A program made the position numbers and the translations under genes. From a virus (taxonomy: Duplodnaviria; Heunggongvirae; Uroviricota; Caudoviricetes), in the IMG/VR virus record IMGVR_UViG_2671180454_000008: DNA of 10,181 nt; one strand, 5' to 3'. Positions within the stretch are counted from its first letter, which is position 1, and the number at the start of each line of letters is the position of its first letter. The notes beneath the pieces were generated by a model. The model saw nothing but the letters and a program-made list of their open reading frames with translations, was not told the DNA's origin and made no database searches. Of the stretch, positions 2,253 through 9,989 are shown one piece after another.

Positions 2253-2628
2253 TATTCAGCAGGTTATGGAACGGTGGGGGGCTTGGGCTGCAAACACTCA
2301 TGAAGATGTATCCTGGGCGTCGATCGCTGCTGGTTTTAAAGGGTTAATTCCGTCGAAAGTGAAATCACGCCCTCAGTGTTCTGATGATGATGCAATGATA
2401 ATTTGTGGCTGTATGGCCCGGTTGAACAAGAAAAATCAGGATTTGCACGATTTGCTGGTGGATTATTACGTAGGTGGAATGACTTTTATGAGTCTGGCAC
2501 GGAAACATGGGTGTTCGGATACCTGTATTGGCAAGCGCCTGCAGAAAGCGGAAGGGGTTATTGATGGCATGTTGATGATGCTTGATATCCGGCTGGAGAT
2601 GGACAGATACGTAGAACGAATTATGTAG
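2242..2628 (+). CDS. Late-gene antiterminator Q, phage 21 / DLP12 QuuD-like
   Basis: [35 protein letters not shown]...[14 protein letters not shown]...[10 protein letters not shown] closely resembles recalled QuuD/Q21. The start overlaps the rusA stop, and the gene sits immediately upstream of a promoter-terminator pair. Confidence 0.8.
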
Positions 2629-2632
2629 GTGC

Positions 2633-2662
2633 TTGACCAGACACATTGTCCGGGGCTATATT
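2633..2662 (+). promoter_or_regulatory. Candidate late promoter PR' (TTGACC-N18-TATATT) with the Q-utilisation region expected nearby
   Basis: -35 TTGACC at 2633-2638 and -10 TATATT at 2657-2662, starting 5 nt after the Q stop codon; this is the canonical lambdoid PR' position. Confidence 0.4.
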
Positions 2663-2723
2663 CCTCACGCGCCAGCAAAATCTGGCGTCGGGATTGGAAC
2701 CCCGGATAGAGACCGCGACAGAC

Positions 2724-2748
2724 ACACGCCGCGAGCGTGTTTTTTATT
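2724..2748 (+). terminator. Candidate tR' intrinsic terminator
   Basis: Hairpin ACACGC-cgcga-GCGTGT followed by TTTTTATT, about 75-80 nt downstream of the putative PR' start site. Confidence 0.45.
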
Positions 2749-2873
2749 GTCGTATGCACGCGCACATCTGAATTATGGTGGGGCGCATGGGGGAGCTGAA
2801 AAGCTCGCCGGTCGGTTTCCCGGTAGTTCCAACCCTGTGCGTCTCACCACCCGATGATTGGAACCTGACGGTG

Positions 2874-2902
2874 TTGACAGTTTCAGGTTTGCAGTTTACA
2901 TT
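2874..2902 (+). promoter_or_regulatory. Candidate sigma70 promoter (TTGACA-N17-TACATT) upstream of the ORF6N-domain gene
   Basis: Perfect -35 TTGACA at 2874-2879, 17-nt spacer, -10 TACATT at 2897-2902. Confidence 0.35.
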
Positions 2903-3108
2903 TCCCCGCGGTGCTCAAAACACCTCGAAAGCGGTATCCACACCCGATAGCCATGTGGTTTTTTTGTGTCCAGAATTCTTGGTTTATGACCGGGTGTGCG
3001 GCTAATACAATACCAGCAATGGAAATACGCCCGCCGACTTTCGACGGTTTTGAGCGCCCGGTCACCCTCTCAAAAGGGGTAAATCAAAATATTCGAAAGG
3101 ACATGTCT

Positions 3109-3672
3109 ATGAATCGCACGTCTATTGAAAAACTCCCGTCACTTACGCATAACCATCTTCCTGTCATGACAACAGAGCTGCTGGCTGATTTGTACGGAAC
3201 AGAGCGCCAGCGTTTGACAAACAATTTCAATCGAAACAAAGAACGGTTTATAGAAGGTAAACATTTTTTCCTGATAGAAGGTGATGCGTTACGAGAGTTG
3301 AAGAACGAAAACTCTTTAAGAGTTTCTGTGAAAATTGCCCGTAACGTTCGCTCCCTCATCCTCTGGACAGAACGTGGCGCAGCCCGTCACGCCAAAATGC
3401 TCGAAACCGATCAGGCGTGGGAAGTGTTCGAAAAACTGGAAGACTGTTATTTCAACCAGAAACAGCCACCAGCGGCACAAAACACATCTATCGAAAATGA
3501 TGGATGCGCATTACTGAGCCACTTCGATAAACACGGTCAGGTTGAGTTCACGGAAAAGGTACCCGCCGATGCGATGGTATGTACTCTGGAACGGTTTAAA
3601 TTTTATCTGGAGCAACACGGGTGGATCGTTGCCCGTAAAGAGCAACTGGTGGAGCGGTTGATGCGGTTTTAA
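3109..3672 (+). CDS. ORF6N-domain (Bro-N/antirepressor-like DNA-binding) protein with a C-terminal region of unknown function; cargo gene downstream of PR'
   Basis: LADLYGTERQRLTNNFNRNKERFIEGKHFFLIEGDALRELK...ILWTERGAARHAKMLETDQAWEVFEKLEDCYF fits the ORF6N domain pattern as recalled. Start chosen at ATG 3109 (AAAGGA RBS at 3096-3101; alternative ATG at 3103). The GTG at 2911 is rejected as an extension. Confidence 0.65.
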   Translation: MNRTSIEKLPSLTHNHLPVMTTELLADLYGTERQRLTNNFNRNKERFIEGKHFFLIEGDALRELKNENSLRVSVKIARNVRSLILWTERGAARHAKMLETDQAWEVFEKLEDCYFNQKQPPAAQNTSIENDGCALLSHFDKHGQVEFTEKVPADAMVCTLERFKFYLEQHGWIVARKEQLVERLMRF

Positions 3673-3689
3673 AAATTTTTTCCGAAAAC

Positions 3690-3703
3690 TTTACGATCGT
3701 AAA
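3690..3703. repeat. 14-bp perfect palindrome TTTACGATCGTAAA just downstream of the ORF6N-domain gene
   Basis: Self-complementary 14-mer read directly from the sequence; an identical copy lies at 8551-8564. Confidence 0.6.
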
Positions 3704-3747
3704 AAGTTGAATATCCTGTTAAGAGTGGTTACTACGCCACACAGCTT

Positions 3748-3773
3748 AAACCCGCCGATGAGCGGGTTTTTTT
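3748..3773 (+). terminator. Intrinsic terminator
   Basis: Stem AAACCCGC / GCGGGTTT with loop cgatga, followed by a T-run. Confidence 0.55.
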
Positions 3774-3823
3774 ATACCTGAAAAACGGCACAGGACGTTA
3801 AACGTGCTGGTGGTCAGATGAGT

Positions 3824-3852
3824 TTGCAGATGTGATGACATATGGTTATTAT
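3824..3852 (+). promoter_or_regulatory. Candidate promoter for the tRNA gene (TTGCAG-N17-TATTAT)
   Basis: -10 TATTAT ends about 10 nt upstream of the tRNA 5' end; the element is conserved in all three copies of the tRNA leader. Confidence 0.4.
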
Positions 3853-3861
3853 TCTGCCTCC

Positions 3862-3938
3862 GGCCCTTTAGCTCAGTTGGTCAGAGCGAGCGACTCATAA
3901 TCGCCAGGTCGCTGGTTCAAGTCCAGCAAGGGCCACCA
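3862..3938 (+). tRNA. tRNA with CAU anticodon, ileX/ileZ-like (tRNA-Ile2; gene finders may call it Met)
   Basis: Cloverleaf parsed by hand: 7-bp acceptor GGCCCTT/AAGGGCC, D-arm GCTC..GAGC, anticodon loop CTCATAA, T-loop TTCAAGT, encoded CCA. Near-identical to recalled E. coli ileX. Confidence 0.85.
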
Positions 3939-3992
3939 AATCATTATTTACGTATCAGGAAGAGTTAAGGGTACAAGGGGTACTCGATGGCG

Positions 3993-4013
3993 NNNNNNNN
4001 NNNNNNNNNNNNN
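3993..4013. other. Assembly gap (21 N) covering the left IS1 junction
   Basis: Run of N in the sequence. Confidence 1.
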
Positions 4014-5106: not shown

Positions 5107-5706
5107 ATGGCGCATATACAACTGATCAAACAAACCTCTTCCGGATTACTTCTCCCGGCGACGCCGGAGAGTTGCGATTTTCTGCATCAAATCAAAACAG
5201 GTGAGTGGATACACGCAGACTTTAAGCGTGTGCGTAACTACGCATTCCACAAGCGTTTTTTCAAACTCCTGCAACTGGGTTTCGATTACTGGACTCCGGT
5301 CGGTGGGGCGATCACGCCTCGCGAACGAGAACTGCTGTCTGGTTTCGTTGATTACCTGTGCGAATCAGTAGGTCGGGAACATACGCCAGCTCTGAGCGAA
5401 GCCGCAGAGCAATATCTGAATACAGTTGCGACACGCAGAACCCGGGATACGGCATTGCTAAAGTCGTTTGAGGCTTTTCGCGAGTGGGTAACCATTCAGG
5501 CTGGATTTTACACCGAACATTTTTATCCGGACGGTAGCCGCGGGCGTCGGGCAAAATCCATCGCTTTTGCGAATATGGACGAAACCGAGTTTCAGCAGGT
5601 TTATAAATCTGTTCTGAATGTGCTGTGGAACTGGATTCTGTTCCGTAAATTTTCCTCTCCGGAACAAGTCGAAAATGTGGCCGCGCAGCTGCTGGAGTTT
5701 GCGTAA
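5107..5706 (+). CDS. Conserved lambdoid nin-region protein (DUF1367-like, tentative)
   Basis: 199-aa ORF with GGAG RBS; its stop overlaps the start of the downstream YbcO-like gene (TAATG); synteny with the YbcO-Q block. The family name is from memory and not verified. Confidence 0.55.
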   Translation: MAHIQLIKQTSSGLLLPATPESCDFLHQIKTGEWIHADFKRVRNYAFHKRFFKLLQLGFDYWTPVGGAITPRERELLSGFVDYLCESVGREHTPALSEAAEQYLNTVATRRTRDTALLKSFEAFREWVTIQAGFYTEHFYPDGSRGRRAKSIAFANMDETEFQQVYKSVLNVLWNWILFRKFSSPEQVENVAAQLLEFA

Positions 5707-5996
5707 TGGTGGATTTACGTAAAGCGGCGCGGGGGCAGATGTGCACCGTCAGAATTCCTGGCTACTGCAATCACGATCCGGAAACGTCTGTGCTGGCGCA
5801 TTACCGACTGGCGGGAACGTGCGGAACAGCGATAAAGCCACACGATATGCAGGCAGCGATTGCCTGTAGCTCGTGCCACGATTTAATCGACGGGCGGGTA
5901 AAAACCAGCGATTACACCAAAGAAGAATTACGCCTGATGCATGCAGAAGGTGTTTTTCGCACACAAGAAATCTGGAGAAAGGAGGGATATTTATGA
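5706..5996 (+). CDS. ybcO: YbcO-like protein (DUF1364; putative metal-binding nuclease of lambdoid nin regions)
   Basis: MVDLRKAARGQMCTVRIPGYCNHDPETSVLAH...GTCGT...IACSSCHDLID closely resembles recalled DLP12 YbcO, including the conserved cysteines and histidines. Confidence 0.8.
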   Translation: MVDLRKAARGQMCTVRIPGYCNHDPETSVLAHYRLAGTCGTAIKPHDMQAAIACSSCHDLIDGRVKTSDYTKEELRLMHAEGVFRTQEIWRKEGYL

Positions 5997-6547
5997 TTTA
6001 CCCAACGAATACAGGAAAAAGCGGAGAACACCTTCGTCTCACCACGCTGGAAAGTGTCTGGATTCAGGGAAAACTACGTATGTGGGGGCGCTGGTCGTAT
6101 ATTGGTGGCGGTAAGACGGGGAATATGTTTAACCTGATGTTGACCTCTAAAAAGCTGACAAAAACGGCAATTAACGAGGCGCTCCGGAGGATGAAAAAAG
6201 CAGGTCTGAACAAGTCTGAACTTGAGGCTTTTTTGCGGGATATGATTAACGGTAAGCAAAAGAGCTGGCTGGCGCATTGTACTGATGCAGAGGCGTTATG
6301 TATTGATCGGGTCATAAGTGAGGTGCTGGCAGAGCATCCAGGATTGATTAGCGTCCTTCGGCAACGGTATGAGGGGCGGGGGATGACCAAACGCAAAATG
6401 GCTGAACTGCTGAATGATGCACACCCGAAATGGAGTTTAAGAACCTGTGAAAGACGCATTGAGCATTGGCTAAAGGTGGCAGAATTTATTTTGTACAAAC
6501 CAATGGTTATGGCTTTTGGTATAGAGAAAAAAGTTATTGCTTTTTGA
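5993..6547 (+). CDS. Putative second late antiterminator (Q-like), a different family from the first Q
   Basis: 184 aa; AAGGAGGG RBS at 5979-5986; ATGA overlap with ybcO; positioned directly upstream of a terminator and tRNA array as Q genes are. Sequence similarity to a specific Q family was not verified. Confidence 0.5.
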   Translation: MIYPTNTGKSGEHLRLTTLESVWIQGKLRMWGRWSYIGGGKTGNMFNLMLTSKKLTKTAINEALRRMKKAGLNKSELEAFLRDMINGKQKSWLAHCTDAEALCIDRVISEVLAEHPGLISVLRQRYEGRGMTKRKMAELLNDAHPKWSLRTCERRIEHWLKVAEFILYKPMVMAFGIEKKVIAF

Positions 6548-6624: not shown

Positions 6625-6648
6625 AGCCCGCTTTATGCGGGTTTTTTT
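6625..6648 (+). terminator. Intrinsic terminator downstream of the Q-like gene
   Basis: Stem AGCCCGC / GCGGGTT with loop tttat, followed by seven T's. Confidence 0.55.
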
Positions 6649-6698
6649 ATACCTGAAAAACGGCACAGGACGTTAAACGTGCTGGTGGTCAGATGAGT

Positions 6699-6727
6699 TT
6701 GCAGATGTGATGACATATGGTTATTAT
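6699..6727 (+). promoter_or_regulatory. Candidate promoter of the tRNA array (TTGCAG-N17-TATTAT)
   Basis: Same conserved leader as at 3824-3852. Confidence 0.4.
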
Positions 6728-6736
6728 TCTGCCTCC

Positions 6737-6813
6737 GGCCCTTTAGCTCAGTTGGTCAGAGCGAGCGACTCATAATCGCCAGGTCGCTGGTTCAAGTCCA
6801 GCAAGGGCCACCA
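6737..6813 (+). tRNA. tRNA CAU anticodon (Ile2/Met, ileZ-like)
   Basis: Identical to the tRNA at 3862-3938. Confidence 0.85.
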
Positions 6814-6814
6814 A

Positions 6815-6891
6815 CCACCACTAGCTCATCCGGATAGAGCATCAACCTTCTAAGTTGACGGTGCGAGGTTCGAGTCCTCGGTGGTGGGCCA
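6815..6891 (+). tRNA. tRNA-Arg (UCU anticodon, decodes AGA)
   Basis: Acceptor CCACCAC/GTGGTGG, D-arm GCTC/GAGC, anticodon stem TCAAC/GTTGA with loop CTTCTAA, T-arm CGAGG-TTCGAGT-CCTCG, encoded CCA; unusual C1-G72 pair. Confidence 0.75.
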
Positions 6892-6893
6892 GC

Positions 6894-6969
<76 letters not shown>

Positions 6970-6972
6970 TAT

Positions 6973-7047
<75 letters not shown>

Positions 7048-7272
7048 GTCAGAGTCTTTCAGTCTGCGATGATGGGAAATCCCGGAGTGACTGAAAGACG
7101 TTTAAGTTATGAATGATCGCCTTTTTTTGCAAAATTGCTGTGCAGAAATACTAACCTTCGGGCGTGCGATCATTCATAAGCACTCTGCTTTTATTCCGAT
7201 TAACTGTGGGTGGTTTGTTGGATAGAGTGTGAGGTGTACTGGCAATAGCGGACACTACCATTTGTTCTTTTT

Positions 7273-8368: not shown

Positions 8369-8533
8369 GCATTACTGAGCCACTTCGATAAACACGGTCA
8401 GGTTGAGTTCACGGAAAAGGTACCCGCCGATGCGATGGTATGTACTCTGGAACGGTTTAAATTTTATCTGGAGCAACACGGGTGGATCGTTGCCCGTAAA
8501 GAGCAACTGGTGGAGCGGTTGATGCGGTTTTAA
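8369..8533 (+). pseudogene. 3' fragment (last 54 codons) of the ORF6N-domain gene, fused to the truncated IS600
   Basis: Identical to 3508-3672; no start codon or N-terminal domain. Confidence 0.75.
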
Positions 8534-8608
8534 AAATTTTTTCCGAAAACTTTACGATCGTAAAAAGTTGAATATCCTGTTAAGAGTGGTTACTACGCCA
8601 CACAGCTT

Positions 8609-8634
8609 AAACCCGCCGATGAGCGGGTTTTTTT
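8609..8634 (+). terminator. Intrinsic terminator (copy of 3748-3773)
   Basis: Identical sequence. Confidence 0.5.
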
Positions 8635-8684
8635 ATACCTGAAAAACGGCACAGGACGTTAAACGTGCTGGTGGTCAGATGAGT

Positions 8685-8713
8685 TTGCAGATGTGATGAC
8701 ATATGGTTATTAT
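8685..8713 (+). promoter_or_regulatory. Candidate tRNA-array promoter (copy)
   Basis: Identical to 6699-6727. Confidence 0.4.
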
Positions 8714-8722
8714 TCTGCCTCC

Positions 8723-8799
8723 GGCCCTTTAGCTCAGTTGGTCAGAGCGAGCGACTCATAATCGCCAGGTCGCTGGTTCAAGTCCAGCAAGGGCCACCA
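8723..8799 (+). tRNA. tRNA CAU anticodon (Ile2/Met), duplicate copy
   Basis: Identical to 6737-6813. Confidence 0.85.
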
Positions 8800-8800
8800 A

Positions 8801-8877
8801 CCACCACTAGCTCATCCGGATAGAGCATCAACCTTCTAAGTTGACGGTGCGAGGTTCGAGTCCTCGGTGGTGGGCCA
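8801..8877 (+). tRNA. tRNA-Arg (UCU), duplicate copy
   Basis: Identical to 6815-6891. Confidence 0.75.
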
Positions 8878-8879
8878 GC

Positions 8880-8955
<76 letters not shown>

Positions 8956-8958
8956 TAT

Positions 8959-9033
<75 letters not shown>

Positions 9034-9647
9034 GCGAGATTTGAGACGAAGGTTGTTATTTGCACTGACACAATATTGTGTGGGAATGTCTGACTCCTTA
9101 CCATCTCCTGTTCTGTGATGTTGTTTTGTTGCAGTTCCAGTGCTCTTTTTTCAGCACCAGAATGGTGCATTGTCGGTCAGGTTACGTAGTGAACCTCTGG
9201 CAGGGGACTGATAATGCATCATTCTGGTGTTGTAAATATCTCTTCGGACAACTTACAAAATATTCTAAGCAAACCCCGGGAACACACTCTTAACTGCCTT
9301 GGCTGGCGGTTTTTTGTACAGCGCTCGGTATGTGTGAGCTGGAAATCAGATTTTGCATGGACTGGAATCATGCTGTTATTTAGGGGCGAAGAACTGGCTT
9401 TTTCTTCCGCCTTCTCACCAGTAACGATTAGAAAAATAATGAAATGCCCCCCTCCGGGGAGGAGGACCGTAGAAAAAAGGACCCGCCAGCAAAAACATTG
9501 GGGATGAACAGCTTTCGCTACTCAGATTGCTGGCGGGTAAAGTTCCTCATGAATTAAGAATGCTACGCGATCTTTTTTAATGGAAATGAAAATTATTGTC
9601 AATTAGTCGTGCGTGTTTTTTCATACAATATTGGTAAAGGTGATTCA

Positions 9648-9713: not shown

Positions 9714-9989
9714 ATGTATCAGATGGAAAAAATATCAACAGGCATTGCCTACGGCACCTCCGCCGGCAGTGCCGGCTACTGGTTTTTGCAGTGGTTGGAT
9801 CAGGTCAGTCCATCACAGTGGGCTGCGATTGGTGTGCTGGGAAGTCTGCTTCTGGGGCTTCTGACTTATCTGACGAATCTGTATTTCAAAATAAGAGAAG
9901 ATAAGCGTAAGTGGATTTGCCCCTATATTTCTCGCCATCATTACGCAAGGCTGTTGCAGTTGCTATTGGTGGCGGGGCTGTTGCTATAG
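9714..9989 (+). CDS. Class II holin of the phage 21 S / EssD type (pinholin) with dual start (M1/M4); the native C-terminus is replaced by a 26-aa read-through across the IS2 fragment
   Basis: [66 protein letters not shown] matches recalled S21/EssD; from 9912 the frame continues as WICPYISRH..., identical to the IS2-end read-through at the window start. Confidence 0.75.

Follow-up and report, generated by a model that had tools for sequence, protein, structure and literature searches.

The window analysed here, a 10,181-nucleotide (nt) stretch of the Caudoviricetes record IMGVR_UViG_2671180454_000008 in IMG/VR, carries a gene for a 187-amino-acid (aa) protein with an ORF6N domain (3109-3672, on the plus strand, as are the promoters, RNAs and genes described below), and the locus raises the question of what this protein does and how its gene is controlled. 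The original prediction saw it as uncharacterised cargo lying between the PR'/tR' region and the tRNA and lysis genes, at the position that stx occupies in Shiga toxin (Stx) phages, with its own promoter and, directly behind it, a palindrome that might serve as operator. Our analysis argues that positions 2621-3683 are probably a self-contained antirepressor cassette between a Q933-type Q gene and the late promoter PR' of that Q. Taken as a whole, the locus is likely to be an RNA-gated antirepressor cassette of the AnrP type.

The predicted 187-aa open reading frame (ORF) with an N-terminal ORF6N domain was borne out by Pfam, in which ORF6N (PF10543) covers residues 15-99 (E=9e-21; score 74.4 bits, cut-off 27.8) as the sole Pfam match of the protein. 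The C-terminal ANT domain (PF03374) of the P22/P1 Ant type was not found by Pfam, the NCBIfam search gave no meaningful match, a PDB sequence search with the whole protein returned nothing at E<=1, and the last ~70 residues had no match in Pfam, NCBIfam or PDB. Over nearly its full length the protein matches PHROG 2379, annotated 'anti-repressor' (E=3e-85; query 3-189 of the 189-aa form that begins at an alternative ATG at 3103, profile 2-187 of 187), and the 187-aa AnrP of Gifsy-1 (STM2616) aligns to its residues 3-184 of 187 with 49% identity (E=6e-58). Of the two possible starts, relatives conserve only the ATG at 3109. The nearest protein match, from Shigella sonnei, is 99% identical, and thousands of homologues of about 185-188 aa occur in prophages of E. 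coli, Shigella, Salmonella, Citrobacter and E. albertii. A single-protein scan of genome contigs returned chiefly distant Firmicutes ORF6N proteins and was uninformative on the leader. As a member of the AnrP/ORF6N family, the protein is ordinary.

In Gifsy-1 (NC_010392), STM2616 sits just past Q and is flanked by isrK, C4 and isrJ, which is the position of AnrP in the locus antQ-isrK-orf45-anrP-isrJ, where anrP is SL2578 in strain SL1344 (Hershko-Shalev et al. 2016, PMC4825925). Expression of anrP raised antQ-operon transcripts and induced Gifsy-1, and AnrP by itself was not toxic (PMC4825925). A family with a genetically studied member cannot be called one of uncharacterised function, and the guess that the protein is an antirepressor gains from both the full-length homology and these induction data. 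The original prediction had also entertained an anti-defence or superinfection-exclusion role, and a defence factor may be added to these; the one match in favour is a weak hit to the PADLOC candidate family PDC-S05 (E=1e-7, residues 19-106). This match is limited to the shared ORF6N domain, whereas the full-length homology is to AnrP, no defence-system partner genes were seen nearby, and deletion of ant in phage 24B left superinfection unchanged (PMC3064807). We consider a role of this kind improbable in the extreme.

The AlphaFold model has a mean predicted local distance difference test (pLDDT) score of 71 and shows a winged-helix-like N-terminal domain at residues ~10-112 (pLDDT 80-90), a disordered linker at 113-131 and a C-terminal domain at 132-187 composed of a beta-hairpin and two helices. 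A search with the C-terminal 73 residues matched just 17 short fragments. The C-terminal ~70 residues reappear at 72-89% identity in the short Rha-family-annotated proteins P0121, P0123 and P0130, of which P0123 bears a Phage_pRha domain, and six loci (L109-L114) match residues 118-187 alone at ~90% identity. This recurrence on Rha-family proteins points to domain shuffling among antirepressor-like proteins.

The perfect 14-base-pair (bp) palindrome, TTTACGATCGTAAA, is present as predicted at 3690-3703, 17 nt past the ORF6N stop codon. By itself it is unremarkable, as shuffled windows average 0.7 perfect 14-bp palindromes and half of them hold at least one; a second, ACACAATATTGTGT, lies at 9068-9081 between the tRNA array and holin, one per window being the chance level. 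What makes the first palindrome credible is its conservation, allowing no more than one mismatch, in 49 of 114 loci fetched in a blastn survey of relatives (given L numbers here). Positions 3683-3775 share homology with H-19B and Sakai Sp5 around the Q end and PR', the alignment taking in both promoter hexamers, the start region and the hairpin that comes first, and this homology points to a Q933-type PR' at 3690-3728 with -35 TTTACG (3690-3695), -10 TATCCT (3712-3717) and an inferred start at A3724. In H-19B, Lahn1, BP-4795 and Sakai Sp5, the Q933-type Q ends ...AGT TTA CGA TCG TAA and is followed by AAATCTGCATATCATGATAAGAGTGGTTACATTGCC... and then a hairpin and T-run, so that the palindrome lies at the very end of Q with no ORF6N gene adjoining. 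In Sp5 the PR' start was mapped by differential RNA sequencing (dRNA-seq) to 1,266,203 and the tR' 3' end by Term-seq to 1,266,460, 258 nt apart (Sy et al. 2020, PMC7547250). When the coordinates are shifted by +142 to match NC_002695.2, the tR' end falls exactly on the T-run of the predicted terminator, which validates the transfer of the Sp5 coordinates; the transferred start is the A of GATAAGAGTGG, with -10 TATCAT, -35 TTTACG and a 16-nt spacer. Judged by this alignment, the palindrome takes in the whole -35 hexamer of PR' together with the 8 spacer nt next to it. The element bound by lambda Q is located between -35 and -10, and the palindrome is a candidate element for the binding of Q933.

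The distribution of the palindrome was compared with that of the Q types. Of the 47 loci that have a Q933-type Q, 43 carry it. Among the four that do not, three are interrupted by an insertion sequence (IS) or break off shortly behind the gene, and the other, L007, retains a PR'-like segment at 89% identity. Among the 12 loci in which an ORF6N homologue follows a DUF1133-, Gifsy-1/82- or 21-type Q, none has the palindrome. Other sequence precedes the palindrome segment in L067/L070 and L068, and in L067/L070 it lies ~720 nt beyond the ORF6N stop. From this co-occurrence and these positions we conclude that the palindrome tracks Q and not the ORF6N gene. These results bear on the idea of autonomous late-operon cargo at the stx position, transcribed from its own promoter and encoding a dimeric protein that binds the downstream palindrome. 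A promoter-like site and the palindrome do both exist, and the predicted N-terminal fold is of a DNA-binding kind. However, the palindrome follows the Q type and aligns with the Q end and the mapped PR' -35 and spacer where no ORF6N gene adjoins, and the gene lies upstream of PR'. The proposal that the palindrome is an operator for the ORF6N protein is not supported by this comparison, and the cargo explanation as a whole is very improbable.

The position of the gene was likewise revised. The elements taken for PR' and tR' upstream of the gene are the isrK promoter (2633-2662) and the IsrK terminator (2724-2745), and the PR' homologue, with its -35 at 3690 and start near 3724, comes downstream of the stop codon at 3672. 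In the annotations of Stx phages that were examined, stx genes are downstream of PR', tR' and tRNAs; an ORF6N gene upstream of PR' is therefore outside the stx slot. For the same reason, the Q-modified late transcript does not include it. PisrK and the second promoter P2 can both transcribe it, and early transcripts reading through Q presumably also cover it. The Q gene (2221-2628; 135 aa; Pfam Phage_antitermQ, E=2.7e-52) loses DNA homology with the H-19B/933W type near 2603, and in the junction alignment its C-terminus diverges from H-19B/Sp5 Q past ...DRYVER. Between the Q core and the PR' homology lies the ~1.06-kb cassette of RNA switches and ORF6N gene (~2621-3683), which in the alignment stands in place of 51 nt found at the 3' end of Q in H-19B/Sp5. 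The same cassette was found behind three Q types and within the nin region of Nil2.

Upstream of the gene, the Rfam models isrK, c4-a1b1, C4 and sRNA-Xcc1 all match on the plus strand in an orderly series, each above its gathering score. The original prediction had described the leader, which is present, and had missed these regulatory RNAs in and upstream of it. The first switch begins with an isrK promoter, TTGACC-N18-TATATT (2633-2662), that has the same position and sequence type as Gifsy-1 PisrK. It is followed by the IsrK small RNA (sRNA) at 2669-2745 (isrK, 77.5 bits, gathering 50), with an a1 hairpin (loop 2676-2682), a b1 hairpin (loop ATTGGAAC, 2693-2700) and an intrinsic terminator (2724-2745), and c4-a1b1 overlaps it at 2656-2708 (50.1 bits, gathering 46.7). 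A C4-family antisense RNA, the counterpart of the Gifsy-1 STnc1160/orf45 region, then occupies 2771-2854 (C4, 71 bits, gathering 45), with b' GTTCCAA at 2826-2832 and b2 ATTGGAAC at 2857-2864. The b1/b'/b2 sites of this switch covary between relatives, as TTGGAA / GTTCCAA / TTGGAACC in the window type and TTGGCG / ACGCCAA / TTGGCGTC in the Gifsy-1 type. An upstream ORF of 76 codons (2775-3005) stops within the 5' stem of the second C4-like RNA; its length differs between relatives (27, 35, 45 and 76 codons). The ATGs at 2775 and 2787 are +107 and +119 from the IsrK 5' end, and Gifsy-1 orf45 has two start codons at these same positions (PMC4825925).

The second switch opens with P2, TTGACA-N17-TACATT (2874-2902), which agrees with the consensus at 10 of 12 positions and has an expected start near 2910, giving a leader of 199 nt. 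The promoter and leader length agree with the original prediction. The P2 match alone is not significant, since 3 promoter-like sites were found in the region and 2.4 were expected. In an alignment of nine leaders of the double-switch form, the P2 hexamers are kept and the spacers diverged in E. coli EC12, Nil2, L083 and L105; P2 is credible because the hexamers persist while the spacer diverges, and in this respect the claim that the gene has its own promoter holds. The alignment displaces the rows of the Salmonella type (L003, L007, L079), whose ungapped sequence gives TTGACA-N18-TATAGT. The Nil2 record annotates the P2 counterpart as 'promoter by homology'. Control of P2 by LexA was considered and rejected: CTGACGGTGTTGACAG at 2866-2881 resembles CTG-N10-CAG and is not conserved in EC12, Nil2 or Salmonella.

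From the alignment, P2 is predicted to produce a short IsrK-like RNA of ~56 nt (2910-2965), composed of an a1 hairpin GGTG-CTCAAAA-CACC at 2910-2924, b1 TCGAAAG at 2925-2931 and a hairpin CCACA...TGTGG with T7 at 2938-2965. The a1 hairpin at the expected start is invariant across the aligned leaders, and the terminator stem covaries (CCACA/TGTGG versus CCGCG/GCGG). Behind it lies a second C4-like antisense RNA (2988-3071), a member of the Rfam sRNA-Xcc1 family (77.4 bits, gathering 53), with b' CTTTCGA (3038-3044) in the loop of hairpin 2 and a' GTTTTGAG (3047-3054) in the adjacent single-stranded junction. The target sites a2 CTCAAAA (3069-3075) and b2 TCGAAAG (3093-3099) follow, and b2 overlaps the Shine-Dalgarno sequence AAGGA (3097-3101) of the conserved start ATG 3109. 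The same sRNA-Xcc1 element precedes the gene in L001, L002, L003 and L007. The double-switch form was found in window-identical loci, several Salmonella prophages, E. coli EC12 and phage Nil2, and most E. coli relatives among the fetched loci have a single-switch, Gifsy-1-like form.

The b1/b'/b2 triple of the second switch occurs in four variants, each fully complementary: TCGAAAG / CTTTCGA / TCGAAAG in the window and Salmonella, TCAGTAG / CTACTGA / TCAGTAG in EC12 and L083, CAAGTAG / CTACTTG / CAAGTAG in Nil2, and CAGAAAG / CTTTCTG / CAGAAAG in L105. Such matched variation at three sites is strong evidence, from comparison of sequences, for b pairings that would be functional. In RNAduplex the pairing between the short P2 RNA and the Xcc1 element beats shuffled versions (z=-3.4) and the cross pairs are no better than shuffled; these energies are dominated by long loops, and we relied on covariation instead.

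A second upstream ORF (2986-3108; compare L002 6360 and L001 6147) opens at ATG 2986, where the Xcc1-type RNA has its 5' edge. It runs in frame into the ORF6N gene in the window and in Salmonella, for which gene callers give products of 215-217 aa that start within this stretch, at an internal ATG 15 nt further in. In EC12, Nil2 and L083 it has a TAG stop inside b2, 10 nt before the start codon, which could provide orf45-like coupling. An N-terminally extended protein from ATG 2986 was rejected as a conserved feature, as relatives show a stop or frame shift.

The architecture of these switches is observed, and from it we infer their activity as follows. In the first switch, PisrK would produce the 77-nt IsrK RNA with its a1 and b1 sites, ending at its own terminator, and read-through would enter the C4-family RNA. 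In the second, P2 would give the short ~56-nt RNA, also with a1, b1 and its own terminator, and read-through would carry the second C4-like RNA, then a2, b2 with the Shine-Dalgarno sequence, and the gene. The a' and b' sites of the C4-like RNA may pair with a2 and b2 and occlude the ribosome-binding site, which would keep the antirepressor off; IsrK and the analogous P2 RNA, both short and bearing a1/b1, may act as decoys that compete for a'/b', or remodel the structure in the manner of IsrK, and so turn translation on. In Gifsy-1, PisrK drives anrP transcription and IsrK opens translation, acting in trans (PMC4825925). Judged by its homology to AnrP, the protein most likely relieves the repression of a lambdoid prophage, with inactivation of a CI-like repressor as the probable route. 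The ORF6N domain would be a common scaffold, and the small C-terminal domain possibly the partner-specific part. In phage 24B, deletion of ant lowers late (PR') promoter activity after induction to about 30% (PMC3064807).

Several points weigh against this reading of the locus. On the protein side, the C-terminal domain is ~30% identical to its counterpart in AnrP, and its pLDDT is about 60-68. The window contains no repressor gene that could be named as the target, and the Gifsy-1 paper reports no direct binding between AnrP and a repressor (PMC4825925). On the RNA side, the short P2 RNA (2910-2965) has no Rfam isrK or c4-a1b1 match at E<=1, and the second C4-like RNA (2988-3071) matches sRNA-Xcc1 only and not Rfam C4. 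Lacking matches to these family models, the second switch is classed by its logic and not by family membership; the likeness of the short P2 RNA to IsrK is one of analogy. The first switch is discordant in L079, where a b2 of the Gifsy-1 type is combined with window-type b1 and b'. IsrK control in Gifsy-1 requires AUGA coupling between orf45 and anrP (PMC4825925), and the window has no such coupling, as the ORF at 2775-3005 ends 104 nt before the ORF6N start; a feed of the first switch into the second is therefore a conjecture. Either C4-type repression or IsrK-type activation may dominate. IS elements abound in the prophage, which may be defective.

The ORF6N domain belongs to the KilA-N/Bro-N group, which is generally held to be DNA-binding, and the protein could accordingly be a sequence-specific DNA-binding regulator, an activator or counter-silencer of early phage promoters, instead of an antirepressor that acts through protein-protein contact. 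The rise of antQ-operon transcription in Gifsy-1, reported without repressor binding (PMC4825925), would suit such a regulator as well. On the other hand, c4-type antisense gating is the context of the true antirepressors of P1/P7, relatives of the gene are annotated ant, and ant of 24B acts genetically as an antirepressor (PMC3064807). We hold the DNA-binding alternative to be unlikely, and retain the RNA-gated antirepressor as the probable reading.

If the antirepressor is gated in this way, the variants of the b sites, at least 4 of the Xcc1 type and 2 of the IsrK/C4 type, might define RNA 'immunity groups', in which only a short a1/b1 RNA of the same type would unlock the antirepressor across co-resident prophages. 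We offer this as a tentative and rather doubtful extension; if true, hosts with several prophages (enterohaemorrhagic E. coli, Shigella and Salmonella) would possess an RNA-coded network of prophage cross-induction, with two tiers in loci such as the window.

The surroundings of the cassette are those of an IS-rich lambdoid prophage remnant. On the plus strand, a DnaB-like helicase, RusA and the Q933-type Q precede the ORF6N region, and tRNA-Met, a gap of N and IS1 follow. Next come part of the late-control region of a second prophage, with DUF1367, YbcO, a DUF1133-type Q and four tRNAs, and then IS600, a truncated repeat of the ORF6N gene, four tRNAs and a holin cut by IS2. Behind PR', the promoter/terminator scan found a hairpin with T7 (3748-3773), at ~+25 to +50, as a candidate first late terminator. 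This hairpin and T-run is conserved with loop covariation in the 49 loci (e.g. L014 770-794; L011 1679-1703) and also in Sp5 and H-19B; the mapped tR' of Sp5 is 258 nt from the start, unlike this near hairpin, which is a candidate for a first terminator, a pause or a Q-loading element. A promoter-like site from the promoter scan (3823-3852) precedes the tRNA-Met (3862-3938) that opens the late-region tRNA array, and in Sp5 a tRNA promoter was reported downstream of tR' (PMC7547250).

The window also contains duplications. A second, 5'-truncated copy of the last 55 codons, PR', hairpin and tRNA-Met (8369-8800) is 100% identical to 3508-3939 and abuts IS600 and a single N (8368); a run of N lies at 3993-4013. 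The tRNA Met-Arg-Thr-Gly array is exactly duplicated (8623-9034 = 6637-7048). Between IS1 and IS600, the second late-control block (5107-6547, 6737-7047), with its DUF1367, YbcO, DUF1133-type Q and four tRNAs, is of another prophage type; from 6637 it shares sequence with the first block from 3762, beginning inside the hairpin. The duplication either reflects two prophage remnants that are nearly identical, with IS600 cutting into one of them, or is a collapsed-repeat artefact of scaffolding, and given the scaffold gaps and exact repeats the local assembly may be inexact. Several IMG/VR loci are 100% like the window across the ORF6N locus. Three otherwise window-identical loci are disrupted, L046 by an insert of ~1.3 kb near codon 20, L047 by a match that stops at residue 168 and L042 by an insert of ~0.8 kb between the gene and PR', which suggests ongoing IS-mediated decay. 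A 20-nt perfect inverted repeat, which we take to be the terminal sequence of IS2, lies near the window ends (112-131 and 9912-9931), and the holin ORF (9714-9989) runs into its right-hand arm at 9912.

Together, these results recast a gene described as uncharacterised cargo as a member of a genetically studied family, and they correct the map of this prophage type, with the late promoter placed after an antirepressor cassette in many E. coli, Shigella and Salmonella prophages. They also indicate that a P1-style antisense lock on antirepressors is widespread among lambdoid prophages and can be doubled, and they connect the Rfam family sRNA-Xcc1 with a concrete target in the form of the ribosome-binding site that serves an ORF6N antirepressor gene. 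A study of APSE phages had already noted, without a mechanism, that an sRNA-Xcc1 gene lies upstream of an ORF6N gene; we found no description in the literature of a tandem antisense gate with two tiers in which an sRNA-Xcc1-family RNA would act on the ribosome-binding site of the gene itself. For Stx phages, the conserved palindrome of PR' is a candidate site of Q action.

Four known systems can be compared with this locus. The PR'-tR'/StxS region of Sp5/Sp15, H-19B and 933W (PMC7547250) bears on the palindrome alone; it has TTTACGATCGTAA(A), -10 TATCNT, start region AAGAGTGG and the first hairpin with its T-run in common with the window. In phages of the Sp5/H-19B type, the palindrome forms the last codons and stop of Q, whereas in the window it comes behind the ORF6N gene; beyond the first hairpin, the window is unrelated to those Stx phages and has no evident StxS homologue.

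The immI region of P1/P7 (c4, icd, ant) is alike in that an antisense RNA lies inside the transcript of its own target, a' and b' pair with a2 and b2 at a ribosome-binding site, copies of a1 and b1 lie upstream, and specificity variants are matched. Citron and Schuster are said to have found in 1990 that the c4 RNA of P1/P7 blocks icd-ant expression through this a'/b' pairing with a2/b2, and matched variation at three sites separates P1 from P7 c4 immunity. Unlike P1/P7, the window has no icd, its b2 lies on the Shine-Dalgarno sequence of the antirepressor gene itself, its a1/b1 segment is a separate terminated sRNA, its proximal RNA belongs to sRNA-Xcc1 and not C4, and its protein joins ORF6N to a novel C-terminus and has no Pfam ANT domain (PF03374).

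The ant genes of Stx phages (24B ant, 2851 antB, Nil2 antB and VT2-Sa ant) share P2, the Xcc1-type leader and a homologous ORF6N N-terminal domain with the window, and DNA identity to Nil2 and 2851 is 79-83%. ORF6N-type ant genes of Stx2a phages encode proteins 66% identical to the window protein over residues 2-124, the N-terminal domain. The Stx-phage Ant proteins differ in their C-terminal domains, that of 24B ending P22 Ant-like, and their genes sit in the nin region or near int and not between Q and PR'. The 24B ant gene promotes efficient induction (PMC3064807).

Gifsy-1 is alike in gene family, 187-aa length, two-domain layout, position directly behind Q, isrK promoter, IsrK sRNA, C4-family RNA and the +107/+119 starts of the upstream ORF. 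It differs in having an 82-type Q, where the window has the Q933 type, and isrJ downstream of the gene, where the window has the Q933-type PR'. The isrJ of Gifsy-1 (L010 33406-33480), with its own start and terminator, fills the slot in which the window has PR' and the hairpin, and IsrJ might be the PR'-tR' transcript of the 82-type Q; an Rfam search downstream of the ORF6N gene in the window returned no isrJ homologue at E<=1. The element order is isrK-C4-anrP-isrJ in Gifsy-1, and the order of the window is shared by Salmonella, E. coli EC12 and Nil2. Gifsy-1 has one switch, and its orf45 stop overlaps the anrP start (AUGA). From the Q stop to the gene start there are 272 nt in Gifsy-1 and 480 nt in the window, in which ~190 extra nt contain the second promoter, the short terminated RNA and the second, sRNA-Xcc1-type C4-like RNA.

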